Assembly: GCF_004010195.1 (NCBI RefSeq)
Contig: NC_057738.1
Location: 41,693,693-41,757,692 of the forward strand
DNA from: Chiloscyllium plagiosum
Taxonomy: Eukaryota
DNA: 64,000 bases
Direction: 5' to 3'
Below are positions 6,871 through 64,000 of the stretch, piece after piece. Under the pieces are notes generated by a model. The model was not told the DNA's origin, did no database searches, and was given only the letters and a program-made list of their open reading frames with translations. Both the position numbers and the translations under genes were made by a program. Within the stretch, counting starts at the first letter, position 1; each line of letters opens with the position of its first letter.

Positions 6871-7399
6871 AAGTTTAGAGGACAAAATTCAGGAACCATT
6901 TAACAGAAAGAACACTGCTTTCTCATTGACTTACCCCGTCCAAATATTTGGAGTTGATTAACAAAAATATTGAATGTGTTTGATATGTTTTTAGGGCTAA
7001 AGGGATCAAAGGGTTTAGGGAGAAAGTGAAAACAGGGAACTGAGTTGGATGTTTAGCCATGACCATATTAAATCGCTTGAGGGTCTAAAAGAGAATACTC
7101 AGTGTTATTGGTTAGATTCATTTCCAGGTTTTTGTTTCCCGAGCAATCCTCCAGTGATCTCCTTTCTACAGCAGCTGGCAGTCAGCTCCAGCTAGGGACT
7201 CCGGGCTAGGGGCTGACTCCGAATACATAATGAGGCTAACTTTGTCATCTTGACGAAATGCTTGATGATTATTCGAAGTGGTGCAAGGAGCAGAAAAGGC
7301 TGCATTTTGTCGTCTTGGCAAATCACACAAATGAAATGCCTGGCATGATGCATGCAAGAACATGGTGCGTTTGCAAGGTAGTCAAACAAATTTTTCAGA

Positions 7400-7617
7400 G
7401 TTAAAAATCACACAACAGCAGGTTATACTCCAACAGGTTTAATTGGAAGCACACTAGCTTTCGGAGCGACGCTCCTTCATCAGACGATACTCTTGATGAA
7501 GGAGCATCGCTCCAAAAGCTCGTGTGCTTCCAATTAAACCTGTTGGACTATAACCTGGTGTTGTGTGATTTTTAACTTTGTACACCCCAGTCCAACACCG
7601 GCATCTCCAAATCATGA
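7400..7617. mobile_element. Miniature palindromic PLE insertion (family B)
   Basis: Inverted arms 7400-7483 and 7493-7576, tail 7577-7617, exact 12-bp TSD aaatttttcaga at 7388-7399 and 7618-7629. Confidence 0.92.
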
Positions 7618-7894
7618 AAATTTTTCAGACGTCTTGATCCCTTTTGAATTTTTTGAACAATTGCATCACTCCTTCAAATTTTACTGTTTTCAATAAACAT
7701 CAAACCTTCCAGTTTTTCATTGATTTACACAGTAATAACCAGAGTTAATATCAAACAATACCGTCCTTATTCCAGTGTGTAAATCTTATTATTTTTAAAG
7801 GCCTTACTTCACATATACCAATTTTAACATATACTATTTTCCTTAACAGGGCAGTTACACCATTTTTAAAATGATTTTGCTTTTTAGTGAATCT

Positions 7895-8490
7895 AGGAGT
7901 TGAAGTGACATGTTACGGCTGTCCAGGACATTGGTTCGGTCATTTCTGGAATATTGCGTTTCAGTTCTGATCTCCCTGCTGTAGGAAACATGTTAAACTT
8001 GAAAGGGTTCAGAAAATATTTACAAGGATGTTGCCAGGTTGTGAGGGTTTGAACTATAGGGAGAGGCTGAATAGGCTGGGGCAATTTTCTCTGGAGCGTC
8101 AGAGGCTGAGGGATGACCTAATAGAGGTTTATAAACTCATGAGGGACATGGATAGGGTGAACAGCCAAGGTCTTTTCCCCAGAGTAGGGGAGTCCAAAAC
8201 TAGAGGGCGTAGGCTTAAGGTAAGAGGGGAAAGATATAAAGGAGACCTAAGGGGCAACGTTTTCACGCAGAGGGTGGTACTTGTATGGAATGAGCTGCCA
8301 GAGGAAGTGGTGGAGGCTGGTACGATTACAACATTTAAAAGGCATTTGGATGGGTATATGAGTAGGAAGAGTTTGGCGGGATATGGGCCAAATGTTGCAA
8401 ATTAGACTAGAATAATTTAGGATATCTGGTTGGTGTGGATGAATTGGACCGAAGGGTCTATTTCTGTGCTGTGCACCTCTATGATTCTAT
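7895..8490 (+). mobile_element. CR1 (HER1-like) 3' fragment
   Basis: ORF 8028-8405: RERLNRLGQFSLERQRLRDDLIEVYK...FTQRVVLVWNELP, plus 3'UTR. Confidence 0.95.
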
Positions 8491-8908
8491 GTTGAAAAAT
8501 CAGTCATGATCACAGAGTTTATTGCCTGAGACATGGATCAGAATAACAGCAGCTCTTGGCCTGCGAAGAGGCAGGTAGCATCTGTGCCAGGGAGAGGCTA
8601 TTTCCAACATGAGATACTGCGTCTCAAATTACAACAGTGACTACACTTCTAAAGTACTTGATTGACCATGAAACACTTTGAGGTGCCCAAGGGATCATGA
8701 AAGGAACAATAGAGATGCAATCTGCCCCTTCCTTCAGTCATTTTTTTTCTTTGACCTTCAGAAACATGACAACCAAATTTTCCACCACCATTAAGTGTGT
8801 GTTTTCTTGGTGCAGCCATATCAACCCTTTCATCTGGTGAATGAATGTCCTGCAAAACATGATTCGCCTCCCAGTCTTTCAAACCCCATTTTCAAGGCTC
8901 ATCAGGAA

Positions 8909-9014
8909 TATGTGATGCTGGTGTTGGACTGGGATGGACAAAGCCAAAAATCACACAGCACCATGTCCAAGTAAACCTGTTGGACTATAACCCGGTGTTG
9001 TGTGATTTTTAACT
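8909..9014 (-). mobile_element. Family B miniature hairpin insertion lacking the hammerhead centre
   Basis: Tail plus short inverted arms (aaaaatcacac.. / ..gtgtgattttt); TSD tcatcaggaa at 8899-8908 and 9015-9024. Confidence 0.8.
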
Positions 9015-9239
9015 TCATCAGGAAAAAGGTAGAGAGCTCACCATTGGTCTGGCTGAGCGTATCACAAGCATACTTATGAAGCCTGGCGCAATCCACAGAG
9101 AATAGTACGATTCAGGGAAAAACAGTTTACTAGGGTCTATATCCTTCACTGGCATATTGTACCCCAGTCTATCAAATCTCGAGGATGGACTGCAACAGCT
9201 GAACAATGATAATATTTCGTCTTCAGGATATGATTGCGG

Positions 9240-19314: not shown

Positions 19315-20083
19315 ATCTATGTCATGATGTTTAGATTGATTCTAATCTAAAAAGTGAGATAACAGAGTTTTACATAAATTCATGCAGTTTTTGAACAAAG
19401 TACAATGTAACTCTGCAAGTACAAATTCAGCCCACAAAATATACGTGTGCATGTGGGTACCGGGCAAAGGCTATGACAACGGATGAATGGGCACCGCACA
19501 ACAATCAACAGACAGGAGGGTTCCCTCCCAGTTGGGGAACACTTCAGTGGTCCAGGACATTCAGCCTCGGACCTTCGGGTGACCATCCTCCAAGGTGGAC
19601 TTCAGGACAGGCAGCAGAGAAAAGTGGCNNNNNNNNNNNNNNNNNNNNNNNNNNNNNNNNNNNNNNNNNNNNNNNNNNNNNNNNNNNNNNNNNNNNNNNN
19701 NNNNNNNNNNNNNNNNNNNNNNNNNNNNNNNNNNNNNNNNNNNNNNNNNNNNNNNNNNNNNNNNNNNNNNNNNNNNNNNNNNNNNNNNNNNNNNNNNNNN
19801 NNNNNNNNNNNNNATCGTAACACAGAATTTATAGCAAAAATTTGCAGTTGATTTACACATGAAAGAAGTGAAACTATCACTGTATTCTAACAGATGAAAG
19901 GCTTAACAGACAATCAATTTTTCAATGTATAATTTAAGTTACATCACACTGTAAATTTTTGCTATAAATTCTGTGTTACGATTGAGCCCTCCACTATCAC
20001 CTGATGAAGTACCGTCGCTCCGAAAGCTAGTGTGCTTCCAATTAAACCTGTTGGACTATAACCTGGTGTTGTGTGATTTTTAA
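19315..20083. mobile_element. Rearranged PLE family B spanning an assembly gap
   Basis: RMNGHRTTINRQEGSLPVGEHFSGPGHS (GIY-YIG domain), near-identical to 30770-30908; pseudo-LTR with hammerhead motif at 19998-20032. Confidence 0.88.
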
Positions 20084-20487
20084 CCTGGCTTCATGAAGAC
20101 AGGCTCTCACTGTCTCTACCTGATAGCTGAAAGGTGTTGAATGACACGAAGCTGCTGTATTGTCTTTTGGGACAGAGAGGCAGGAAATCAAAGAGCCCCC
20201 AAATGTGAATTGGAGGCGTGAGATTATATGGTCATGAGCTCCATTATAGGGGGCATTGAATAGAGATTCTATTGGGAACATCCTGGAATGGCTTTGATAA
20301 CATGCACTTGATAGTTTCCATAGAGGAGGGGAATTGAGCAGACACGTTTCTCATCCGTAGCCTCCGAGGGAATGTGACTTCGGGGACTCAACATGTGGTA
20401 TCAACTTTGCTGCCAGATATTGTTTATCTGTGTTTCAGCCTCCATGCTTCTGTCTCTCATTAGGCATTAGGCCCAGTGAGATAATAG

Positions 20488-20720
20488 TTGAAAAGTGCAG
20501 CACTGGAAAAGCACAGCAGGTCAGGCAGCATCCAAGGAACAGGAGAGACGACATTTCAGGCATAAGCCCTTCATTCGGAATGTGTGTGTGCTTGTGTGTG
20601 TACGCTTGTGTGCATGTACGTGTGTTTGTGTGTATGTGTGCGTGTGTATGTGTGTGTATGTGTCAGGAGGGGGAGGGGGCTGAGTAAGATAATATCTTTA
20701 CAAAATAGGGGAGGAAGTGG
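20488..20720 (-). mobile_element. PLE family A 3' end with internal (TG)n expansion
   Basis: gaaaagcacagcaggtcaggcagcatcc..ggcataagcccttcatt, then TG tract at 20581-20663. Confidence 0.75.
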
Positions 20721-22198: not shown

Positions 22199-23121
22199 AT
22201 GCTTCAATTTGATTCAACTGAAAGAAATGTTATTTTTGAAGGAGAAATGTTATTACAAGTGTAGGCTATATGAAAAGGAATTAAGGGGAGAAAACAGAAG
22301 GCAACTGATGCTATGTTATCTGGATCTGAATGAGATATAAGCCAACGTATTGATCCATTTAATTATATCTGCCAGATGTAACAGCAGACTCAATCTCAAG
22401 CTGAAACAAACCCGTTAAATATGCAGCTGGGAATTCACAGTCCCTTCCATGTGTGCAGATGAACAAGCTGCTCCCTGGCTGACCTAATTTGGGAAAAAAA
22501 ATCAATTAACTTTTCATTCTTTTCTGAATATGTTTTTTTGCTGTTGTCACTGGCAAGCTATACAGCAGAGGGATACCATATCCTTAAGCTCCAGTGTACT
22601 TAAACCATTGAATGTTTTAATAAAAAGAAAACAGGGACTGCTGTGTGAGCCATTCAATGAATGAATTTGCTTTTAGTGTAATTCAAAGGCCAGTGGCTAC
22701 ACAGGATAGTAGGCACTTAAATTCAATAAGCTCTGGGTTTTTTTAGCTTCGCATTTCAAAGCATTATAAAAGTTAATTATTGTTCAAAAATTAATGTCAG
22801 GCATTTCAATGGCAGAGTGACTGCTGAGTCATATTAAAATGGCAGAGAGAGGATACAATCTGCACCACAATTTGAAATCCAATCATGTACTTAAAGGAGA
22901 TTTGTAAGCAGTAGATGTGAGGGATCTAAGTGGTGGTTCTGCAAAGTTCAACTGGTGCTGTAATGGCAAGGAATATCAACCACTGAAATCGGATCAAAAA
23001 CAGAGTACATTAAGCAGACAGGAGTGCGTACTACCCAATAACCCAATGCTATGCTTAAAGGTATTGCACAGACAGTGCCTGAGTTGCAAACAGGTTCTAT
23101 TCTTGAATCCACATGTAATTG

Positions 23122-23340
23122 GAAGAGTGCGCTGCTGGAAAAGCACAGCCCATCGGGCGGCATCCGAGGAGCCGGAGAGTTGATGTTTCAGGCATAAGCT
23201 CTTCATCAGCCCTTCCTCATGACGGGCTTATGCCTGAAATGTCAATTCTCCTGCTTCTCAGATGTTGCCTGATCGACTGTGTTTTTCCAGCACCACACTC
23301 TTCGACTCTGATCTCCAGCATCTGCAGTCCTCACTTTCTT
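23122..23340. mobile_element. Miniature palindromic PLE insertion (family A)
   Basis: Inverted arms ~23122-23209 and ~23215-23303 meeting at two decayed hammerhead cores; tail to 23340. Confidence 0.85.
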
Positions 23341-25689: not shown

Positions 25690-25790
25690 GTCAAAACGTG
25701 TGGTGCTGGAATAGCACAGCAAGTCAGGCAGCATTCGAGGAGCAGGAGAGTCGACGTTTTGGGCATAAGCCCTTCATCAGGAATGTGGGC
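25690..25790 (-). mobile_element. PLE family A short 3' piece
   Basis: gtcgacgttttgggcataagcccttcatcaggaat. Confidence 0.85.
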
Positions 25791-26244: not shown

Positions 26245-26372
26245 GGTAAAAACAATGACTGCAGATGCTGGAAACCAGATTCTGGATTAGTGGTGCTGGA
26301 AGAGCACAGCATTTCAGGCAGGATCCAAGGAGCAGCGAAATCGACGTTTTGGGCAAAAGCCCTTCATCAGGA
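26245..26372 (-). mobile_element. PLE family A short insertion with TSD
   Basis: Exact 11-bp TSD aatgtattaga at 26234-26244 and 26373-26383. Confidence 0.9.
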
Positions 26373-26509
26373 AATGTATTAGACAATTGCATGAGTCCAT
26401 TTGGGATCACCAAAACAGAGTTGGCTAGTTTCCCATGACTGGCCCTGGAGCTTGTTCTCTTGCCTCAGTCCCAGCCGATTGGCTTAGGAAGGGGAAAAAT
26501 GTTTGTATT

Positions 26510-26640: not shown

Positions 26641-27822
26641 GGATCTCCATTCCTTATGATATAGAGATCGACTTTTGGACCAAGTCAGCCTTTCCATTTC
26701 TGTATTCACAACACTGTAAAATTAAAACCTTCAACGTCTCTCAAAATTGACTCCAATAGCTCCTCGCCAGACTTTTTGAAAAACCAATCCCAGGCTCTGC
26801 AAATAATCAAATCTAGACATTTGGTTATGTAGTTGAAACAAAAGACTTTGCAATTTATTAACAATACAGTAACTTTAGCAAAGCAAAATTAAATAAAAAT
26901 GTAATCTAATTAATATCTACGTCATAAACTCAATAAACTTTGTCTTTAGCCCCTTTCACACAAAAGACAGACAAACAAGTACAATTAAGGGATAAAGAAA
27001 ATAACAAAATTGGCTTGATTACTTAAGTAGCTTTGACGATGCATTATTCCACAAGCAGAGATGATTGTTTCTTGGTTGATTTTCCAAAGTCATTAATCAG
27101 GGTCACCTTTTCCATCCACTCAGAAAGAGTCAGTGATACTGATAACTTAGTTCCTGTTCTCTGAATGTCCAATGCTGATAATGGGAGGTTAGGCAGGGAC
27201 CTTTCAAATCTTCATGCTGATCAACAGCCTAACTCATTCTTCCAGAAAACGCAGCCCAAAACCCAATTAAAACTATGGCCTCTCCCTGTCAGACTGAATG
27301 TCTCGGCACAAGTTCTCAGTTTCCATTTAACATCTGCCATTTGCTTGAGCATGAGGTCTCTCAAGGAGTTGCTGGAAGTAATTCTCAGGTACTGGCCTCG
27401 CTTGTGGCTAAACATCCGTTATCTGATTAAACATACTGTCCTTTGCTGCTGTCGAAGAACCAATCTTCTTTAATCAAGAACCAACCTGCAATTAACTTCC
27501 AGCCTCTGCCTCAAAAGCTTGTTTGTTCTCACTGCCTTTTTTGTAACCCAAGCTGCTTCCCACAGTCTATAGGTCATTGTCACCTTGCAGCCCTCAGCTC
27601 GCAGCTCCAAACTAAACTTGATAAAGGAATAAAATAAAAATAATGAAAAATCATTGAGATTTTGTTTAGTTATCTTTAGCAGTCAGGTTCATTATTATGG
27701 GAGCAAGGCAGAGTTGAAGGTTTCCCTGGCAGTTGATCTTGTACCTGTTATATAATAAGATGAGCTGAAAATGTGTTGCTGGAAAAGTGCAGCAGGTCAG
27801 GCAGCATCCAAGGAGCAGGAGA

Positions 27823-27856
27823 ATCGACGTTTCGGGCATAAGCCCTTCTTCAGGAT
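27823..27856 (-). ncRNA. Minimal type I hammerhead motif (family A, best copy) within a PLE piece at 27762-27856
   Basis: AUC-CUGAAGA-A-GGGC-UUAU-GCCC-GAAA-C-GUC-GAU; helix I AUC/GAU, palindromic ACGU. Confidence 0.72.
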
Positions 27857-29315: not shown

Positions 29316-29965
29316 GTAAACACCTTGCACTTAGAGTAACTGCTCAAAGTAGATTTAATTTTTATAAAAATACAGGCTTTCAATATATATTTGAACATAA
29401 AATATTATTAATGTGTTGCTTTAGAAATTTACTCAAGATTGACCTAAGACTATTTTGTAATCTAATCTTTTCCTTTGTTATAGGGGAACCTTGCTCTTTC
29501 TCTCTCAACTGAGTTATCCTTTGGTTCAAAATGAGTATTCTGGCTCCTAGAAATGTATAACTTGTCTGTTCTGATCAATCGGATCAAAACCTGTCTCATT
29601 TAATTGGAAGAGGACCATGAATTATTCAGTGTAGTGCAATTTTAATGTTAACTAAGGATGCATCACAACTCTAAAAATCATATTACCATCTTGTTCCTGA
29701 AGTATGGAAATGTGTAAGAATTTGAAACTTTGGCTTCTGGTGTGATGAAAAGAAGCAAAAAACTTTGACTTTTAGTAGTTCCTTCAATGAAATAAATTTT
29801 ATGAGATTCCACAGACACAATCTTCAAGAATCATTATTTAATTAGAAGAATCTGGGAAACCTGCATCATGACTTGATAGTTTCAAGATGATTGAAGATTC
29901 CCCATTAGACACAGTTAAAAATCACACAACACCAGGTTATAGTCCAACAGGTTTAATTGGAAGCA

Positions 29966-30000
29966 CACTAGCTTTCGGAGCGACGCTCCTTCGTCAGGTG
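29966..30000 (-). ncRNA. Minimal type I hammerhead motif (family B, best copy)
   Basis: CAC-CUGACGA-A-GGAGC-GUC-GCUCC-GAAA-G-CUA-GUG; helix I CAC/GUG, palindromic AGCU. Confidence 0.72.
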
Positions 30001-30043
30001 ATAGTGGAGGGCTCGATCGTAACATAGAATTTATAGCAAAAAT

Positions 30044-30908
30044 CCCACCATCAAACTCACCATGGACTACTCTCGACTATCTGTCTCATTCTTGGACACA
30101 TGCGTCTCCATCAAGGATGGACACCTCAGCACCACAGTCTACCACAAACCCACAGACAACCTCACAATGCTAGACTTCTCCAGCTTCCACCCAAAACATA
30201 TTAAAACAGCCATTCCCTATGGACAAGCCCTACGCATGTCTGCTTAGATGAGGAGGAATGTGACGGACACCTGGAAGTACTCAAGGATGCCCTCACAAGA
30301 ACGGGGTATGATGTTCAACTCATCGACCGCCAGTTCCGACGTGCCACAGCAAGGAACCGTAATGACCTCCTCAGGAGACAGACACGTGCTGCAACTGACG
30401 GGGTACCATTCGTTGTTCAGTACTTCCCAGGAGCTGAAATACTACGCCATGTTCTTCGCAACCTGCAACACATTATCAATGAGGATGAGCACCTCACCAA
30501 GACCTTCCCGACACCTCCACTACTTGCCTTTAAACAACCGCCAAACCTCAAACAGATCATTGTTTGTAGCAAACTGCCCGGCTCTCAGGACAACTCCATA
30601 CAACCCTGTCACGGTGGACACTGCAAGATGTGTCAGAGTGTGGACATAGATACCACCATTACACGTGGGGACACCTTGTACATGGCAGGTACTCATGTGA
30701 CTCAGCCAACGTTGTCTATCTTATACATTGCAGACAAGGATGCCTGGAGGCATGGTACATTGGGGAAACCGAGCAAAGGCTATGACAACGGATGAATGGG
30801 CACTGCACAACAATCAACAGACAGGAGGGTTCCCTCCCAGTTGGGGAACACTTCAGTGGTCCAGGAATTCAGCCTCGGACCTTCAGGTGACCATCCTCCA
30901 AGGTGGAC
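30044..30908 (+). pseudogene. PLE RT thumb, Cys linker and GIY-YIG endonuclease remnant
   Basis: SFLDTCVSI..VYHKPTD..SSFHPKHIKTAIPYGQALR; QPCHGGHCKMC; SCDSANVVYLIHC..WYIGET; frameshifts and a stop. Confidence 0.92.
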
Positions 30909-32629
30909 NNNNNNNNNNNNNNNNNNNNNNNNNNNNNNNNNNNNNNNNNNNNNNNNNNNNNNNNNNNNNNNNNNNNNNNNNNNNNNNNNNNNNNNNNNNN
31001 NNNNNNNNNNNNNNNNNNNNNNNNNNNNNNNNNNNNNNNNNNNNNNNNNNNNNNNNNNNNNNNNNNNNNNNNNNNNNNNNNNNNNNNNNNNNNNNNNNNN
31101 NNNNNNNNNNNNNNNNNNNNNAGTGTTCCCCAACTGGGAGGGAACCCTCCTGTCTGTTGATTGTTTTGCGGTGCCCATTCATCCGTTTTCGTCGCCTTTG
31201 CTCGGTTTCCCCAATGTACCATGCCTCCGGGCATCTTTGCCTGCAACCTATGAAAGAAGTGAAACTATCACTGTATTCTAACAGATGAAAGGCTTAATAG
31301 ACAATCAATTTTTCAATGTATAATTTCAGTTACATCACACTGTAAATTTTTGCTATAAATTCTGTGTTACGATCGAGCCCTCCACTATCACCTGATGAAG
31401 GAGCGTCGCTCCAAAAGCTAGTGTGCTTCCAATTAAACCTGTTGGACTATAACCTGGTGTTGTGTGATTTTTAACTTTGTACACACCAGTCCAACACCGG
31501 CATCTCCAAATCATTAATAGACACAATTATCCTAATTGTTCTAGACTGAATACTCCCCTCAATATGTCAGTGTTTGACAGACACTCTGGTGTCCCATAAA
31601 GCAAGATGTCCCCACTTCGACCCCACTTGAACAATTCCTTACTGACAAACCATGATAGGCAGTTTCTGTGCATGTCTGCACAAAAGGAACTTGTTAATAA
31701 TGGCAGCACTGACGTACTGATAGCCTTCAGGCTCTGATTGAATCATCAACACGCTAACAGACAATGACATGGCAAGAAAAGCATGGATGCTGTGAACATG
31801 CAGGAAGGTGCTACATCAATGAACGTGAGGTCAGCAAGCGAGTGGCTCTGAGATGCAACCTCATGAGCTGAAGTACGATATGATTCTATGACAGTTTAAA
31901 TAGAAATACGGCTGAAACGGTAACAGGGAAAATAGATTCATTCAGTGTTTTATGAAATCATATACCACTGCCAGTTTTGGTTAATAGCAAAGTGGCTTTA
32001 AATGAAAAAGAAAGCGTTGCAATTTTCAACACGAAATTAAAAACAGCCATCACGTTGCTCATTACCACTCTAGGTTTCAAGAAAAGGCTACACTCGTACG
32101 GAACAAATTACAGAAGTGTGGGGTGAGAGGGTCCTGAGTAAACTGAAGGAAATTGTAGCTTCAGCAGAGCCAGGCAAAGAGGGGTTATTATCAGAGAAAG
32201 TCCCTTCCCATGCTCATGGCGAGGGGGAGAATGTGAGGCAATTAAAAAAGAAATACATGCAAACACACACACACACACTATTTATAATCTGATGCAATCA
32301 TGCTGAAAAGTAGCAGCTGTCTGCTTTTAAAGGGGATGGATCAATTAGGAATGAAGACTGGGAGAGCTTAATAAGGTGCCTCTCTACTCAAATCACAATT
32401 AAACTATAAGCATTTAATTGACGAGAAAATAATGAAACATTTTCATAAGGATCTAAAATATCAGCAGCTGTCTGAAGTACAAGATACATCAATATGTAAG
32501 GAAGTTGATTGGATACAAACATAACTGAAGAAATTACAGGAAGAGGCCACTCAACACTGCCAGCTTTGTCTATCATAGGTGATGGTTTATTTGATTGAGT
32601 ACGGGATGGGGGTGCTATAGACTTGTTTT

Positions 32630-32880: not shown

Positions 32881-35800
32881 TAGATATCATCATTGAGATG
32901 GCAATAGTTCAATTTCCAAATTGTCCTTAACCAGCATTTACGCACTAAGCACATTCACTCTACAGGCATTGCAAATAGGCCATTAAATGATTGCAAATTA
33001 GCAATAACTTTAGCTTATAGACTTTGTTTCCTGTATTGCCCCCTTCATTGTCCTAATGTCGTGATGGTCAAGTTGGATCTTGTTACTAGACAAATCAGGG
33101 TCAGATTTAGATCTGGCTTCTTTTTTGGTTTTGGTCTTAATGAGATGGTCTCTCACTGAGTCAGAAACATGTAATGTTTGAGATGTTGTTTCAACAATAA
33201 AACAGAAGTTTATTAAGCAAATAAGTAAATATAAAGTAGAATAAGTCTGGTAATTTACTTGCAGCTCAACTTCAAAGACCTTTAAACACATCATAAACAG
33301 ATAATCCAATTAATTCAGAAACAAGCATTTCCAAGTTTCAAAACAGAAATATTCCTTGTACCATACTCACACCTAATTTATTTTTCCTCTAACATCAGGT
33401 TCAAGGTAACTGACGTTAACACATAGACTGGAAAATTAATAGGTTCTTCTGAGAGCTATCATTCATTTGAGCACAAACTTTTTCAGCTTTAAGTAGCCTC
33501 TTCAGGGTGTTATCTCAACACTTCTAGTTTAGAGCTAACAATAACTCTTTACTCCAATATAGTTTAACTATATTCTCCCTTTCTCAGGAACACTGCTTTA
33601 TCTTCCTACAAGGATTTAACACACCTGCTAAAAACAAAGTCAAATGGAAATAAAACCATTCTCTCTCAGAGTGTTTCCCCAAGCTGGAAAAAATAACCTA
33701 ACTCTAAGCATTTCTAAAAGAACCCTTGCAATGCAAATGACCAACTTGCTAAGCCATACAAGCCTAATGTAAAAAAAAATAAGTTGCCAAAGAAGCTCTT
33801 ACAAACTGATGTAAAAGAAATCACCATGGCTCCAGAAATGCTTGCAAATGAATTATTAACTTTAGATGCACATAAAGCCCATATGTTACTAATTTAAAAT
33901 CCAAAAATCAAAATTAAAATGAATAGTGTTAAAATTATGTAGAAATCCAGCAGTTTAAATCATTCATTCAGCAGATCCTGTACTTTCAGCCATCATATCT
34001 ACATTGGGTGCTGTCCCGGATATTTTCAAATCTGGTGAACGGTAAGTGACAGCAAGAATACAGCTCTGGGTGAATACTTTCAGAACCGAGCCTTTCCTGG
34101 TTGCCAGCTACTTCCTCAGTGTCTCGACAGCTATTTACCTCACATAACCCAGACAGCCCTTTTCTGCCCATACCCCCCACATGGAGACCCAGCACACTGA
34201 TCTTTACCTCTTTGCCCCCAGGCTTTGACATCACACTTTCTTGATGTCAGCCTGGTCCTTTACACTCCTCCCCTCCTATGGATGCCATAGTAGTGGTCAC
34301 TGTCAATGACACTCCAAACATAGCCTTCTATGCCCTCCCAATGTTGTTCCGCATTCTCCCTCTTATTCACATCACCATCCTGGTCCCCATCTCAAAACAG
34401 GCCACTGCTTTCTACCCACCCCCCCCAAACTTGAATGGCCCACCTCTTTTGGTAATGAGACTCCTTTGCCCCCACAACTCACCCATGATTACACCCTCCT
34501 CAACAATCAACACACAGACCCCCATCCCCAAAGGATTTAATTGCCCAAGACCTCCGACTGACTTCATTAAACAGCCACTACACATAACTGACCGAACAGG
34601 TGACCGCTGATGATATGTGATTCCCCTGACGGCTTGTGATAGCCCTACAGAACCGAGCTATGGTCCTGGACTGGAGCTGGATATATCGGCCTGAGCAGGT
34701 GACTGACTGTGGTCAAGCCCTGGAATTGAGTGTGGACTGTGTTGCTGACTGACTCCCTGACCAACCTCTGTGTCTGTGTAGAAGAACATGTTAATGTGGC
34801 ACTATTGATAGCCTTTAAACTTTGGTTAATACGTATGATGTGACTGAGCACTAAAAGAGAGAGCAAACAGCTCAGTCTGTGAGCTGGGTGCAAGTCCCTG
34901 CACACAGTGTCCTTGCTGTAGCCTTTCAATGTTAGTTATCAATGCACCCAGTGATGCCAGCCTGTAGATTCTCGGTGTAGTAAAGACGTGCCTTGATGGT
35001 TGTGAGAGGGTGACAAATACCAGATGCCAATGTCCATGGGCGAGGGCTGCGTGGGGTTGATGCCCTGGATCATGCTCTAAGATGCTGTTTGGGGTGGAGG
35101 CTGTTAGTTATCAGCTATCCCCTCTAAAATTCATTTCAAGATTTCTCAGCACTGATCTCACTCGCAGCGGATGGTAGGATAGAAGATGCACTAAATTGTT
35201 GCCATCACTGTGACAAACCACACCAGACTTCTCCTGCCACATTTCTCACCATATTCCACATCATTCAGGCTCCTATCAGACAATGGGTCAACAGTCGAAC
35301 CTGAGGATGAGCATTCCACACTGAGACAACCTCTCAAAGACTCAAGTTCAAATCCTCCGAAGCCACGTCCAAACTGGATTCTAAACTAAACTGAAATCTC
35401 ATATTGAGAAAAATCAATTTACCTGGAGATGATGCCTTGAATTTTAAGCAGTGCACTTCACCCAGATGGAAACAGGGAATTGTAGCCACAAAACAGTTAG
35501 GCATAGCTGTCAACGTTGATCAATATCTTTAAAATATCAGTTTTATGGCATTGTGAAGCTAACTATTCTACTCCCGATATAGCAAATAATCAACTTCATC
35601 ATACTTTCATCCATATTGTTTTAACAAATTAAATAATCAATGAGGGCAAACTATTTTGAGAGAGTGTTAATGCAATTATGTGTCTGTGCAACTAAAATTC
35701 AAACTTCTCTTTATTATTGTTCATTGGATGTGGGCACTGCTGGCTAGGTTAACATCAGTGGCCCATATTATACCATTGAGAAAGTCTAAGAACTTAACAT

Positions 35801-37164: not shown

Positions 37165-37735
37165 AGGGTTCGGAAGAGATTTACCAGGACGTTGCTGGAA
37201 ATGGAAGGTTTGAGTTATAAGGAGAGGCTGGATAGGCTGGGACTTTTTTTTTTCACTGGAGCGTAAGAGATTGAGAGATTTATAAAATAAGGATGGGGTA
37301 TTTCAAAACTAGTGGGCATATCCTTAAAGTGATAGGAGAAACATTTTAAAAAACATGAGGGGCATTTTTTTTTTACACAGAGAGTGATTTGTGTGTGGAA
37401 TGAACTTCCAGAGAAAGTGGTGGATGTGAGTACAATTATGATGTTAAAAGGTATTTGGATAAGTACATGAATAAGAAATGTTTTGAAGGATATAGACCAA
37501 GCACAGGCAGGTGGGACTAGTTTAGTTTGAGATTATGGTTGACATGGACTAGTTAGACTGAAGGTAAAAACAATGACTGCAGATGCTGGAAACCAGATTC
37601 TGGATTAGTGGTGCTGGGAGAGTACAGCAGTTCAGGCAGCATCCGAGGAGCAGTAAAATCGATGTTTCGGGCAAAAGCCCTTAATCAGGAATACAGCAGG
37701 CTGTTTCTGTGTTATATGACTCTCTGACTCTGTAG
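37165..37735 (+). mobile_element. CR1 3' fragment with a nested PLE-A piece (37563-37697, minus)
   Basis: CR1 ORF2 end; its 3'UTR is interrupted by ggtaaaaacaatgactgcagatgctgg..gtttcgggcaaaagccc. Confidence 0.88.
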
Positions 37736-40560: not shown

Positions 40561-41204
40561 CTCTCCCAAATTACAACATTTGCAACTTACGTTGAATTTA
40601 TGACTTCTGTTTATCAACCCACTTGTCAGAAGAGGAAATTTCTCCTCACTTGGCCAATCTATACCCCTCATAAATATTGGATCTGTTTGTTACAACTGTC
40701 CTCCCATCCTCCTCTGCTCAAAGGAAAACAATCAGAACTTCTCCAATCACTCCACAGAAATGAAATCACTCATCCCTGCTATCACCCTACCAAACTCCTC
40801 TCCATGGATTTGATGACTTCCTGAAATTACATTCAGGGACAGGCTGTTTTACTATAAATGCGGAGCATAACAGCATATTTTTTTAACAATTCTACACTCC
40901 ATTTAAAAAGTCCCACATACCTTAGAGATTGTCAAACTTTATGAATATACTTACATTTTCAGACACCTTTTGCACTTCTAACCCCTCCCTGTGTATCACC
41001 ATTTTGTTCCCTTCCACACTACATCATTTCACTGGAGTAAAGGAAAAAAAGGACTAAGGATTCATGGATCATTTCCCCACTGGCTGTTCGCTCTACTGCA
41101 ACATCTGGGAATGGCAGTTTGTTGTTTTTTTTTCCTTTCTTCAGTGAATTTTATGCCAGTAAGGGTATTATTCATGGTCTTGAATGTTTTCTTAATTTGT
41201 TTTG

Positions 41205-42025
41205 TCACTAAAGAGGAGGAAAACAACAACAAACTGCCATTCTTAGATGTCACAGTAGAACAAACAACCCATGGGGATCTTCAAACCAGTGTCTATTGGA
41301 AAACAACAGATATGGAACAAATATTGAACTACAGAAGCAATTATCCCAACACCCACAAATGGAGCTCCATTAGAACACTATTTCAATGGCCACTGCACAT
41401 TGCAGCACAGAGGAACTATGCAGAGCAGAGGAAAATCACCTGTACAGCGTATTCAAAAAGAATGGGTACCCAATGAACATAGTCCTCCAATTTCTCAGCA
41501 ACATACCCCAACAAGGAGACAAAACACATCCAGAAATCCTAGCCACTCTCCCCTACATCAAAGACAACTTGGAAATGACTGCCAAACCACTCAGACCTCT
41601 TGGCATCATGGTAGCCCGCCAAACCACTCAGACCTCTTGGCATCATGGTAGCCCACAAACCCAGTAACACACTAAAACAGCAGCTAATGAACTTAAAAGA
41701 ACCTATACAGAAAACAAGCAAAACTAATGTCATTTACAAAATACCTTGCAAGAACTGCAACAAACACTACATTGGATAAACAGGCAGAAAACTAGCCATC
41801 AGGATACATGAACATCAACTAGCCACAAAAAGACATGACCCACTCTCACTAGTATCCTTATGTATGGATGAGGAAGGACATCACTTCGACTGGGACAACA
41901 CATCCATCCTAGGACAAGCCAAACAGAGACACTCATAAGAATTTCTAGAAGCATGGCATTCCAACTGGAACTCTATGAACAAACACATTGACTTGAATCC
42001 CATTTACCACCTCCTCAGAAAAAGA
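41205..42025 (+). pseudogene. PLE RT thumb and GIY-YIG remnant without a Cys linker
   Basis: KLPFLDVTV..SVYWKTT..; FKKNGYP; LPYIK; TNVIYKIPCKNCNKHYIG*TGRKL..RIHEH; GHHFDWDNTSIL. Confidence 0.92.
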
Positions 42026-53677: not shown

Positions 53678-54075
53678 AAAACATTTAAAAGGCATCTGTA
53701 TGTGTAGATGAATAGAAAAGATTTAGAGGGATATGGGTCGTGAGTGTGGTGTTGGAAAAGCACAGCAGGTCGGGCAGCATCTGAGAAGCAGGAGAATCGA
53801 CGTTTCGGGCAAACGTCCTTCAGCAGGAAATGGGAAGTTTTCCTGATGAAGGACTTTTGCCCGAAACATTGATTCTCCTGTTCCTTGGCTGCTGCCTGAC
53901 CTGCTGTGCTTTTCCAGCACCACACTCTTGACTCTGGTCTCCAGCATCTGCAATCATCGCTTTTTCCTTTAGAGGGATATTGGCCACGTGGGGCAAATGG
54001 GACTAGATTAATTCTGGTCAGCACGGATGAGTTGGACTGAAGGGTCTTTTCCATGCTGTACATCTCCATGACTCA
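53678..54075 (+). mobile_element. CR1 3' end split by a PLE hairpin
   Basis: acatttaaaaggcatctg..tttagagggatat [insert] tttagagggatat..catctccatgactc. Confidence 0.9.
53735..53967. mobile_element. Miniature palindromic PLE insertion (family A)
   Basis: Arms 53737-53830 and 53839-53932, tail 53933-53967; exact 13-bp TSD tttagagggatat at 53722-53734 and 53968-53980. Confidence 0.93.
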
Positions 54076-54784: not shown

Positions 54785-56405
54785 TAGAGTCATAGAGTCA
54801 TAGAGATGTACAGCATGGAAACAGATCCTTCGGTTCAACCTATCCACGTCGACCAGATATCCCAACCCAATCTAGTCCCACCTGCCAGCACCCGGCCCAT
54901 ATCCCTCCAAACCCTTCCTATTCATATATCCATCCAAATGCCTCTTAAATGTTATAAATGTACCAGCCTCCATCACATCTTCTGGCAGCTCATTCCATAC
55001 ATGTACCACCCTCTGCGTGAAAACGTTGCCCCTTAGGTCTCTTTTATATCTTTCCCCTCTCACCCTAAACCTATACCCACTAGTTCTGGACACCACCACT
55101 CCAGGGAAAAGACTTTGTCTATTTATCCTATCCATGCCCCTCATAATTTTGTAAACCTCTATAAAGTCACCCTTCAGCCTCCGACGCTCCAGGGAAAACA
55201 GCCCCAGCGTGTTCAGCCTCTCCCTGTATCTCAGATCCTCCAACTCTGGCAACATCCTTGTAAATCTTTTCTGAACCCTTTCAAGTTTCACAACATCTTT
55301 CCGATAGGAAGGANNNNNNNNNNNNNNNNNNNNNNNNNNNNNNNNNNNNNNNNNNNNNNNNNNNNNNNNNNNNNNNNNNNNNNNNNNNNNNNNNNNNNNN
55401 NNNNNNNNNNNNNNNNNNNNNNNNNNNNNNNNNNNNNNNNNNNNNNNNNNNNNNNNNNNNNNNNNNNNNNNNNNNNNNNNNNNNNNNNNNNNNNNNNNNN
55501 NNNNNNNNNNNNNNNNNNNNNNNNNNNNNNNNNNNNNNNNNNNNNNNNNNNNNNNNNNNNNNNNNNNNNNNNNNNNNNNNNNNNNNNNNNNNNNNNNNNN
55601 NNNNNNNNNNNNNNNNNNNNNNNNNNNNNNNNNNNNNNNNNNNNNNNNNNNNNNNNNNNNNNNNNNNNNNNNNNNNNNNNNNNNNNNNNNNNNNNNNNNN
55701 NNNNNNNNNNNNNNNNNNNNNNNNNNNNNNNNNNNNNNNNNNNNNNNNNNNNNNNNNNNNNNNNNNNNNNNNNNNNNNNNNNNNNNNNNNNNNNNNNNNN
55801 NNNNNNNNNNNNNNNNNNNNNNNNNNNNNNNNNNNNNNNNNNNNNNNNNNNNNNNNNNNNNNNNNNNNNNNNNNNNNNNNNNNNNNNNNNNNNNNNNNNN
55901 NNNNNNNNNNNNNNNNNNTATAGTTCCCTGGCTTGTCCTTACCACCCTTCTTAAACAGTGGCACCACGTTTGCCAACCTCCAGTCTTCTGGCACCTCACC
56001 TGTGACTATCGATGATACAAATATCTCAGCAAGAGGCCCAGCAATCACTTCTCTAGCTTCCCACAGAGTCCTCAGGTACACCTGATCAGGTCCTGGGGAT
56101 TTATCCACCTTTAACCATTTCACGACATCCAGCACTTCCTCCTATGTAATATGGACATTTTGCAATATGTCACCATCTATTTCCCTCCAGTCTACATATT
56201 CCATATCCTTTTCCACACTAAATATTGATGCAAAATATTCAATTAGTATCTCCCCCATTTTCTATGGCTCCACACAAAGGCCACCTTGCTGATCTTTGAG
56301 AGGCCCTATTCTCTCCCTAGTTACCCTTTTGTACTTGATATATTTGTAAAAACCCTTTGGATTCTCCTTAATTCTATTTGCCAATGCTATCTCATGTCCC
56401 CTTTG
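54785..56405 (-). mobile_element. Young CR1 (HER1-like) ORF2 fragment spanning a gap
   Basis: LKVDKSPGPD..VPEDWRLANVVPLFKKGGKDKPGNY; LERVQKRFTRMLP..; tail (tagagtca)n. Confidence 0.96.
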
Positions 56406-56739: not shown

Positions 56740-58825
56740 CACTCCACATGGATTCCAACTCAAGTTGAATCCCTCCTGTTTTGAATCCACCCAAGATCAT
56801 TGATATTCCACCATGTTCAATGCTCCACAGACAGCTGCTCTCACCGTATCCAGAAGTCCACACTGAGTGCTGTGTGGCACCACATGCAGACTCTCGATCT
56901 CTCTCTCCATGCTTGCTCAGAGCTGCACCACTCTCCAGTTCCACTTCATCCTCCGGTTCCATTGCCGTGCTAACAAGAAACTTTCTCTTTTCCTTTCAGG
57001 TATCAAGGCCACAAGATGCAACAACTCAGGGATACCCATGGACCCCTAGGTCCTTCCTCCCCTCCCCTTCCCTCTGACTCCATCCCCAACCCCAACCCCA
57101 CCTCCTGTCGGGTATTCACCATCCCTTCTAACCTTCCACTCTCTGATGCTGAGCATTCTGTGACTCAGCAAAAGGCTATGTTTTATGCCTGTGCGTGCCC
57201 ACCTTAGTGAATTTCAGGAGATAGGGGCAGGCATCTGAGAGCTGAATTTTAGGCACCAAATGACCTTGAACTCTTCTTCTGTCATCTTCCCCCACCCTCG
57301 TGCCTATTTCTTTGGATAAGAGTCCTCCCACTGTCTCCCAGACCCCTTTGCCCAGCTCCACCCCTCCCTTTGCTTGTTTACCTAAACTCAGTCTGTTCAT
57401 TGAGAACTGTCATGACAATGGTCGCCTCAATTTCTCTGCACCCCCCTCACCCATTCTCCTCCTCCTGGGAACTGACTGCACCCTATGCTCTCAGATCCAA
57501 CCCTGACTTTGTCATTAAGCTTGTGCTGATCTGGATGGTGCTGTTGTTGTCTGGCGGACTGACCTCTACATTGCAGAGGCTGAGTGCCAGCTCTTAGATA
57601 CCTGTCCCTATCTCCTTCTGGACCATGACCCCACGATGGACCATCAGGTTATTCTGTTCACAACAATCACCATCCTCAATCCATCCAGGAATCTTCCCCC
57701 ACCCTACACAACTCACATCAGCCTTCTTCCCAAAACCCACAAGCAGGACTGCCTAGCAGACCCATTGTTTCAGCCTGCTCCTGCCCCACAGAATTCATCT
57801 CTTCCCAACTCAACTTGGTTTTTCTGTCCCCTTGTCCAGTCCCTTCCCACTTATATCCATGAATCCTCTGACGCCTCATGTCAGTTTCAGAATTCCCAGT
57901 TTGCGGGCTCCAGCCACTTCCTCTTTACCATGAACACACAATCCCTTTACACAACTATCCCCATCAGGATGGCCTCAGGGTCTCCATTTCTTCCAACCAA
58001 CCCCCACTGCCCCACAACCCCATGGCACCTTGCCCGAAACTGTAAAAGGTGTAACACTTGCTAATTTACTTCCTCCCTCCTCAGTATCTTTGGGCCCAAA
58101 TATACTTCTCAGGTGAAGCAGCACTTTATCTGCACTTCACTCAATCTAGTCTACTGCATTTGCTGCTTGCAATGTGATCTTTACATTGAGGAGATGAAGT
58201 GTAGTCTGGGTGATCGCTTTTCAGAAAACCTATCTTCTGTCCACAAAAAAAGACCTAGGGCTTCCAGTTGCCTGCCATTTCAACACACCACCATGTTCCC
58301 TGACCAATATCTCTGTCTCAGGCTTGCTGGAGTGCTCCAACGAAGCTCAATGCAAGCTGGAAGAACACCATCTCATTTTCCATTTGGGAACTCTCCAGCT
58401 TTCTGGACTCAATATCAAGTTCAACAATTTTAGACACCTTCTCCCATGACTTTATCCCAACCCCACACACCAGGCCTTGTTATCACACAGTCTGCTATTA
58501 CACACAACCCACTGTTAGCCACTAACAAGCCCCATGAGCATCTGCAGTGTATTCATTCTCACGGCTGACCATTATCCACTCCTTTATCTGTCCAGTTGCT
58601 CTTCTGTCTCTTTGGGCTCTATCTCCATCCATCGTTTACTCCTTATTCCTTCTCCCATACCCCCATCTTCTACATAAAAAAAAACAATGTTTTCCTGGCT
58701 CCCATCAGTTCTGAGGAAGGTCACTGGACCCAAAATGTTAACTCTGACTTCTGTCCATAGATGCTGCCAGACTTGCTGAGCTTTTCCAGCAATTTCTGGT
58801 TTTGTTTCTGATTTGCAGCATTTCA
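56740..58825 (+). mobile_element. Degraded Neptune-type PLE (family C) with internal deletion
   Basis: DKG-like ADLDGAVVVWRTDLYIAEA, LLPKTHK, FTMNTQSLYTTIP (RT motif A), CKRCNTC linker, LVYCICC..LYIEE (GIY-YIG), LEEHHLIFHLGTLQLSGLN; decayed hammerhead at ~58707-58744. Confidence 0.88.
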
Positions 58826-63021: not shown

Positions 63022-63445
63022 CTGGTGGCTTAGTGGTTAGCACTGCTGCCTCAGTGTTTTTTAAAATTAAGAGTCACTCATCCTTTCAGGGCAGAGATGA
63101 GAAGAAATGCTTGCTGTCACTGAGTTGTGCAACCTGTGTGATTCCTTATCTCAGAAGCTGGAGGGCGAAGGATCATTAGATGTTTTAAAGGTAGAGTTAG
63201 ATCAGGGACCTGGGTTTGATTCCACTCCAGGGCGACTGTGTGTGTGGAGTTTCCATGTATTTGAGTAGGTTTCCTCTCACAGTCCAAAGATGTGTAGGTT
63301 AGGTGGATTGGCCATGGGAAATTATGCAGACTAGATGGATTAGCCCTGGGAAATACAGGGTTACAGAGATAGGGGAATGCTGTTTGGAGGGTTGGTGTGG
63401 ACATGTTGGGCTGAATAGCCTGCTTTGATAGTGTAAGGATTCTGT
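63022..63445 (+). mobile_element. HE1-like SINE with a ~150-bp foreign insert
   Basis: Head ggtggcttagtggttagcactgctgcctca, resuming cagggacctgggtttgattcc at 63203. Confidence 0.85.
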
Positions 63446-63899: not shown

Positions 63900-64000
63900 C
63901 TCAGTGTTTTTTAAAATTAAGAGTCACTCATCCTTTCAGGGCAGAGATGAGAAGAAATGCTTGCTGTCACTGAGTTGTGCAACCTGTGTGATTCCTTATC
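63900..64000 (+). repeat. Exact direct repeat of 63050-63150 (old CR1 fragment)
   Basis: 101 of 101 bases identical up to the window edge. Confidence 0.95.

Follow-up and report, generated by a model that had tools for sequence, protein, structure and literature searches.

A 218-bp fold-back insertion in Chiloscyllium plagiosum likely assembled from two head-to-head Penelope-like 3'-end pieces

Introduction

What produces a short non-coding insert whose two halves fold back on each other, with a hammerhead motif on either side of the turn? Such an insert occupies positions 7400-7617 of the 64,000-nucleotide stretch of the Chiloscyllium plagiosum genome analyzed here (contig NC_057738.1, positions 41,693,693 to 41,757,692 of the forward strand; hereafter, the window). 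An initial annotation, made from the sequence, left two readings side by side, the minimal product of integration of a Penelope-like element (PLE) and a self-propagating non-autonomous hairpin family.

PLEs commonly have an adjacent inverted 5'-truncated copy (PMC8557442, PMC3846280), and the insertions described in the accessible text of one study combine an inverted 5' pseudo-LTR (pLTR) with a 31-bp tail and a target-site duplication (TSD) of 8-10 bp, the head-to-head arrangement being the commonest (Arkhipova et al., 2013, PMC3846280). A tail of 30-40 bp at one end has also been reported (Craig et al., 2021, PMC8557442). Minimal hammerhead ribozymes (min-HHRs) have also been described in pairs, one on each strand and separated by about 100-700 bp, as probably truncated PLEs (Cervera and De la Pena, 2014, PMC4209133). 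For the anole Poseidon element PAc, both strands were nicked and extended in vitro at AT-rich targets, two internal RNA start sites for RT set the tail, and hammerhead cleavage was dispensable in vitro (Frangieh et al., 2024, PMC11167929). All published systems are cited here as far as the accessible parts of these sources go.

Data

Logan contigs of four public runs were compared to positions 6950-7900. Run X3 represents organism A and comes from the same study as the best-matching dataset, maybe the source of the assembly; X9 and X10 represent organism B and come from two other studies. About 89,000-100,000 contigs per run entered the depth comparison. Host genes were sought by a Pfam scan of 127 of the 176 non-repeat ORFs of at least 62 aa.

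Results

Layout of the insertion

Inspection of the sequence shows that the insert is bounded by the exact direct repeat aaatttttcaga (Table 1). At such a spacing, with slack allowed, an exact 12-mer repeat occurred by chance at five of 20,000 random window positions. The 84-nt arms are complementary at 78 positions and mismatched at six, and the two outer ends differ, the tailless one lying at +84 from the hammerhead C3 and the tailed one at +123 to +125. Read on the minus strand, five of the nine loop nucleotides are identical to the parental bases upstream of C3, the rest being likely filler; the loop is no palindrome in itself. The coordinates bear out the 218-bp insert, 84-bp inverted arms, tail of about 40 nt and 12-bp TSD of the initial annotation. 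Its claim that the element is non-coding holds as well: none of the ORFs of at least 120 aa in the window overlaps the element, and the ATG frame in the sister copy at 31.4 kb closes after eight codons.

Table 1. Parts of the insertion and the other head-to-head units of the window.
Feature	Positions	Strand	Details
Left TSD	7388-7399	.	12 bp, AT-rich; junction also in contigs of X3, X9, X10
Inverted tailless pLTR arm	7400-7483	-	From the intact minimal-hammerhead core (C3 = 7483) to +84; 2 private changes
Loop/junction acgatactc	7484-7492	.	9 nt
Direct pLTR arm	7493-7576	+	Core damaged (C3U, G12A); 4 private changes, 2 at CpG
One-sided tail	7577-7617	+	41 nt; matches the tail of the copy at 31476-31514
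Right TSD	7618-7629	.	12 bp, same letters as left TSD
Small fold-back, family B	8914-9015	.	Arms start at +61 and +37; without hammerhead core; exact 10-bp TSD
Head-to-head unit, family B	19814-20084		Arm starts -61 and -142
Head-to-head unit, family A	23120-23329		Arms meet at the cores
Longer sister unit, family B	29909-31515	.	TSD about 10-12 bp, 1 mismatch
Head-to-head unit, family A	53743-53967		Arms meet at the cores; loop differs from that of 23120-23329

Origin of the arms

The arms are 93-97.5% identical to copies of one pLTR family (family B), and the right arm together with the tail matches 31393-31514 with 97.5% identity over 122 nt, which confirms the proposed derivation from the family B pLTR at 31380-31515. 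The sister copy at 31250-31515 shares one TSD-bounded unit with remnants of an RT thumb and an endonuclease at 30041-30907, and the orientation of the hammerhead is the sense of this RT/endonuclease ORF. The remnants match shark proteins, the best one being from Hemiscyllium ocellatum (68%); tblastn aligns the RT thumb and the endonuclease motif, and longer relatives carry the Pfam domain RVT_1. Pfam returned no meaningful match for five out of five PLE fragments, and no GIY-YIG match in these fragments or their relatives; their PLE identity is taken from homologues. The visible motif VYLI..C....YIGET..RL..RMNGH we take to be that of a GIY-YIG endonuclease. Homology identifies the arms as the pLTR, that is, the 3' end, of a Penelope-like element, and the parent is, judging from its remnants, an endonuclease-positive PLE, its GIY-YIG name coming from the motif.

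Two further stretches of the window recall PLEs. At 57525-57962, a decayed piece shows weak similarity (E 5e-7) to shark PLE proteins in their N-terminal RT region, and at 41074-41277, an old degenerate inverted repeat (69.5%) overlaps an RT-thumb-like ORF at 41.2-41.5 kb, presumably of a different PLE type, judging by its motifs.

Other head-to-head units of the window

Five other head-to-head units, spanning about 100 to 1,600 bp, are found in the window, and all six junctions, including that of 7400-7617, differ. The TSDs of the units are 10, 11, 12, about 12 and 14-16 bp long; in eight of the 14 units tested in the window, a convincing TSD is absent. The longer sister unit consists, in this order, of an inverted tailless arm (to 30043), the 5'-truncated and frameshifted RT-thumb/endonuclease body (30041-30907), an assembly gap, an inverted endonuclease piece and the pLTR with the tail; its arms start at -46 and inside the RT. 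The window has three N gaps (19629-19813, 30909-31121 and 55314-55918), all within inverted repeat arrangements, two of PLEs and one LINE-like, and therefore the structures of those units are uncertain.

A second hammerhead-bearing pLTR family (family A) is represented at 20503-20581, 23120-23329, 25700-25784, 26245-26373, 27773-27855, 37563-37696 and 53743-53967. Among its 12 non-reference matches, nine start at the hammerhead edge, within -8..+1 of C3, with unlike sequence upstream, and the other three start at +31 to +39; this compares with two of the nine family B arm ends in the window, both of them in 7400-7617.

The family B direct arms at 19859 and 31250 start at the identical base, 142 nt upstream of C3, and adjoin different inverted partners. 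This start is possibly a second fixed 5' boundary, either of the full pLTR or of the transcript. The 10-bp TSD of the small fold-back (8899-9024 with the TSDs) is the reverse complement of the start of the hammerhead core and adjoins a CTGATGA...GAAA match at 8890-8905, a likeness due either to chance or to insertion into an older pLTR relic.

Hammerhead cores and predicted fold

The initial annotation had counted two CUGAUGA cores. The left one, read on the minus strand from 7483 downward, is indeed intact (CUGAUGA...GAAA), so that the min-HHR boxes CUGANGA, GAAA and NUH are all present in the left arm; the right one is mutated, reading UUGAUGA...AAAA, and lacks the full set. Both arms miss the parental 5' strand of helix I. 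The hairpin fold is predicted at -140.5 kcal/mol (z -19.7), none of 200 shuffled sequences being equally stable. In the predicted ensemble of the full hairpin, the pairing probability of hammerhead stem II is about zero, and opening the core within the hairpin would cost about 29 kcal/mol. According to these predictions, the hairpin outcompetes the ribozyme fold, helices I and II are not formed in the transcript, and the ribozyme is not expected to form in the hairpin. If transcribed, the insert is predicted to yield a long dsRNA stem. RNA run X22 gave no reads anywhere on the stretch, high-copy repeats included, and so provides no test of expression or editing.

The Rfam search yielded no match to a hammerhead family. 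A match to mir-515 (43.9 bits, with the gathering threshold at 68) was rejected as reflecting the hairpin shape only. The arms begin at +1/+2, and the ribozyme's predicted cut site (+29/+30) was accordingly rejected as the origin of their 5' ends.

The insertion in two species

Contigs of X3 cover 6998-7421 and 7593-7900 with no differences, and those of X9 and X10 stop at 7423 and resume at 7594. The flanks of organism B are about 2-3% diverged (in X10, 14 of 446 and 7 of 307 letters). Both outer junctions occur in both species: on the left, the flank passes into the tailless end, read on its reverse strand, and on the right, the tail passes into the flank. The junction contigs enter the element by only 22-25 nt, less than the 31-nt bridging rule. 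None of the 24 contig pieces listed, with 269,746 more outside the listing, spans the loop, and hence the interior of the insert rests on the assembly. No empty allele was seen among the listed contigs of either species, and the exact 12-bp repeat is thus a putative TSD as regards the pre-insertion allele. Since both flank junctions occur in runs of two species, the insertion is common to them and is older than the split of organisms A and B, an age that agrees with six private changes over 168 arm bases.

Joints, ends and depth of the family

In X3, the summed depth is 740-990 at 7490-7493, compared to 1.6-4.7 million in the arms and 11.4 in the unique flank, contig depth not being equivalent to copy number; coverage of the loop is lower than that of the arms by a factor of about 1,000. 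Even this depth mostly belongs to other letters (at 7490, G in 734 of 989; at 7493, C in 635 of 761), which leaves for the loop no more than about 8-22 single-copy equivalents in X3, upper bounds that were taken at 7493 and 7490; for the arms the figure exceeds 100,000. The corresponding upper bounds are 6-14 in X10 and 18-40 in X9.

The joints comprise 15 listed ones and 339 more; some joints fall outside these counts, and short contigs may be missing. Depth is higher at a few of the joints, at 15-34 times the flank: 7483-7533 in X3, and 7483-7552 in X9 and X10. A mass-amplified family with the loop acgatactc is unlikely; small amplified junction sets are possible. The loop-junction comparison that had been suggested as a BLASTN search, made here on Logan contigs, speaks for integration products, given the diversity of the joints, with the few deeper joints as the exception.

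Loose contig ends, at 500-1,200 contigs per position, cluster behind 7576/7579 and 7614-7617, and the flanks at these ends are AT-rich and mutually unlike (agreement 0.34-0.37). Two 3' ends lying about 38-41 nt apart are preferred in the family, and the insert uses one of them on each side.

Other features of the window

No host gene was identified in the window among the 127 ORFs scanned with Pfam. The sole match, to HCO3_cotransp (33013-33309, minus strand; 19.1 bits at a cut-off of 27), was rejected, having no support from structure or homologues. An ORF-like stretch at 34245-35107, rich in Pro, Thr, Ile and Leu and atypical of the window, has no Pfam match. A perfect 101-bp direct repeat (63050-63150 and 63900-64000, 850 bp apart, clipped by the window end) is either a recent tandem duplication or an assembly duplication.

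Discussion

Comparison with known systems

The insert resembles the units of endonuclease-positive PLEs in its inverted truncated head-to-head copy, one-sided tail, short TSD and type of parent, which encodes RT plus, at the C-terminus, an endonuclease of GIY-YIG type (Arkhipova et al., 2013, PMC3846280; Craig et al., 2021, PMC8557442). Unlike the PLE examples enclosing an ORF or other DNA, both copies are 84 nt here and no ORF lies between them, and the TSD, at 12 bp, and the tail, at 41 nt, slightly exceed the lengths given for rotifers in these sources. We assign it to the published class of PLE insertions with an inverted pLTR and a tail, at its short extreme.

With the metazoan PLE min-HHRs, the arms share the core boxes, the extra base before stem II, the G-C closing pair and the palindromic AGCU in place of helix III; the pairs described in the same source differ from the present cores, which are only 9 nt apart, with one mutated, helix I truncated and the fold outcompeted (PMC4209133). 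Sharks are not among the hosts that the accessible text of this source names for min-HHRs. As in PAc, there are tailless and tailed ends and an AT-rich target; the PAc ORF begins in stem II, and the matching ATG frame of the copy inspected here runs into a stop (PMC11167929).

Non-LTR retrozymes are similarly non-coding, derived from PLE pLTRs with a type I hammerhead, and known from a chondrichthyan, but they are head-to-tail tandems with at least two complete hammerheads on the same strand, whereas the arms here are head-to-head with one intact core (bioRxiv 10.64898/2026.07.22.740005).

We found no description of hammerhead-centred PLE palindromes in sharks; Repbase, Dfam, supplements and most subscription journals were outside the search, and the family may already be catalogued. 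A 30-nt arm pattern had no matches in metagenome_contigs and none in viral_contigs.

Proposed origin and its rivals

Taking all this into account, we consider it probable that the 218-bp insert of two head-to-head Penelope-like 3'-end pieces was built once at integration and has likely been inert since. The parent remnants, the use of both preferred 3' ends and the five window units with different junctions support the minimal integration product of the initial annotation. The insert is likely an extremely 5'-truncated Penelope insertion with priming at both nicks. The GIY-YIG/RT protein would cut both strands of an AT-rich site, with the nicks about 12 bp apart, and both free 3' ends would prime cDNA on pLTR RNA, one from the tailless start and the other from the tailed one. 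Both cDNAs would terminate on reaching the upstream hammerhead edge, through either the 5' end of the RNA or a stall of the RT, and the host end-joining would connect them, adding a few filler bases, so that the hairpin would be a by-product of the two-nick geometry. We infer twin priming, the supporting biochemistry being that of a lizard Poseidon element, possibly of another clade than the present family; the accessible text of that work gives no explanation for 5' ends at the edge of the hammerhead (PMC11167929).

The closest competitor alters the course of the reaction and leaves the product unchanged: the inverted arm might have been formed by self-priming (fold-back) on one template, followed by capture of the second end. 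Self-priming on an antisense template is preferred by Arkhipova et al. (2013) and has been suggested for head-to-head palindromic junctions (PMC3846280), and the five parental bases in the minus-strand loop would suit it. The loop, however, is not palindromic, each outer end falls on one of the two preferred 3' ends, and in vitro both strands are extended by the enzyme (PMC11167929), so that we regard self-priming as unlikely, if still a serious candidate. Much less probable is a self-propagating non-autonomous hairpin family, whose fold-backs would be transcribed and then integrated again in full by the PLE protein, with the loop kept. Both of the preferred start sites do lie on the right arm with the tail, depth is raised at a few joints, and one filler recurs in both organism B runs. 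Against this stand the scarcity of the loop in X3 relative to the arms, the six junctions of the six window units, and an 84-bp stem that would bury the tailless start site; this half of the initial annotation is disfavoured. The chance that some fold-back stubs have been re-copied whole, giving an RNA-mobilised, MITE-shaped non-autonomous family, is about as slight or slighter. The right arm of the hairpin transcript would carry both RT start sites, and two cDNAs primed there would read through the loop, anneal and restore the hairpin; if so, the joints at 15-34 times the flank depth would be its traces.

An assembly artefact, with the palindrome collapsed or invented, is highly improbable. 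N gaps do occur at two other inverted PLE units of the window and the loop is unbridged, yet both flank junctions are found, in inverted orientation, in three independent runs of two species, without differences in X3, the arms differ at six sites, and the unit is only 218 bp long. The least credible reading is a MITE mobilised by a DNA transposase. Like MITEs, the insert is short and non-coding and has a long inverted repeat and a TSD; unlike them, it has an inverted repeat that is not terminal, with the 41-nt tail outside, TSDs that vary from 10 to 16 bp among the units, and a retroelement parent (PMC8969392). The element whose 3' end makes up the arms encodes RT, and RT, not a transposase, is what the partner encodes; the sister units measure about 100 to 1,600 bp, and many copies alike in size and interior were found neither among the six units of the window nor in the three runs. 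A MITE-like amplified family is disfavoured because the loop is rare and there are hundreds of other joints.

Implications

Taken singly, the locus is of little consequence. As a class, however, such stubs preserve, within about 220 bp, the two priming sites and the two stop points of a Penelope integration, and their genome-wide tally could distinguish twin priming from self-priming and could explain what makes copies begin at the upstream hammerhead edge. They are open to misfiling as MITEs or, as the sub-threshold Rfam match illustrates, as microRNA precursors. Being common to two species, the insertion itself is a possible presence/absence marker, given an outgroup check.
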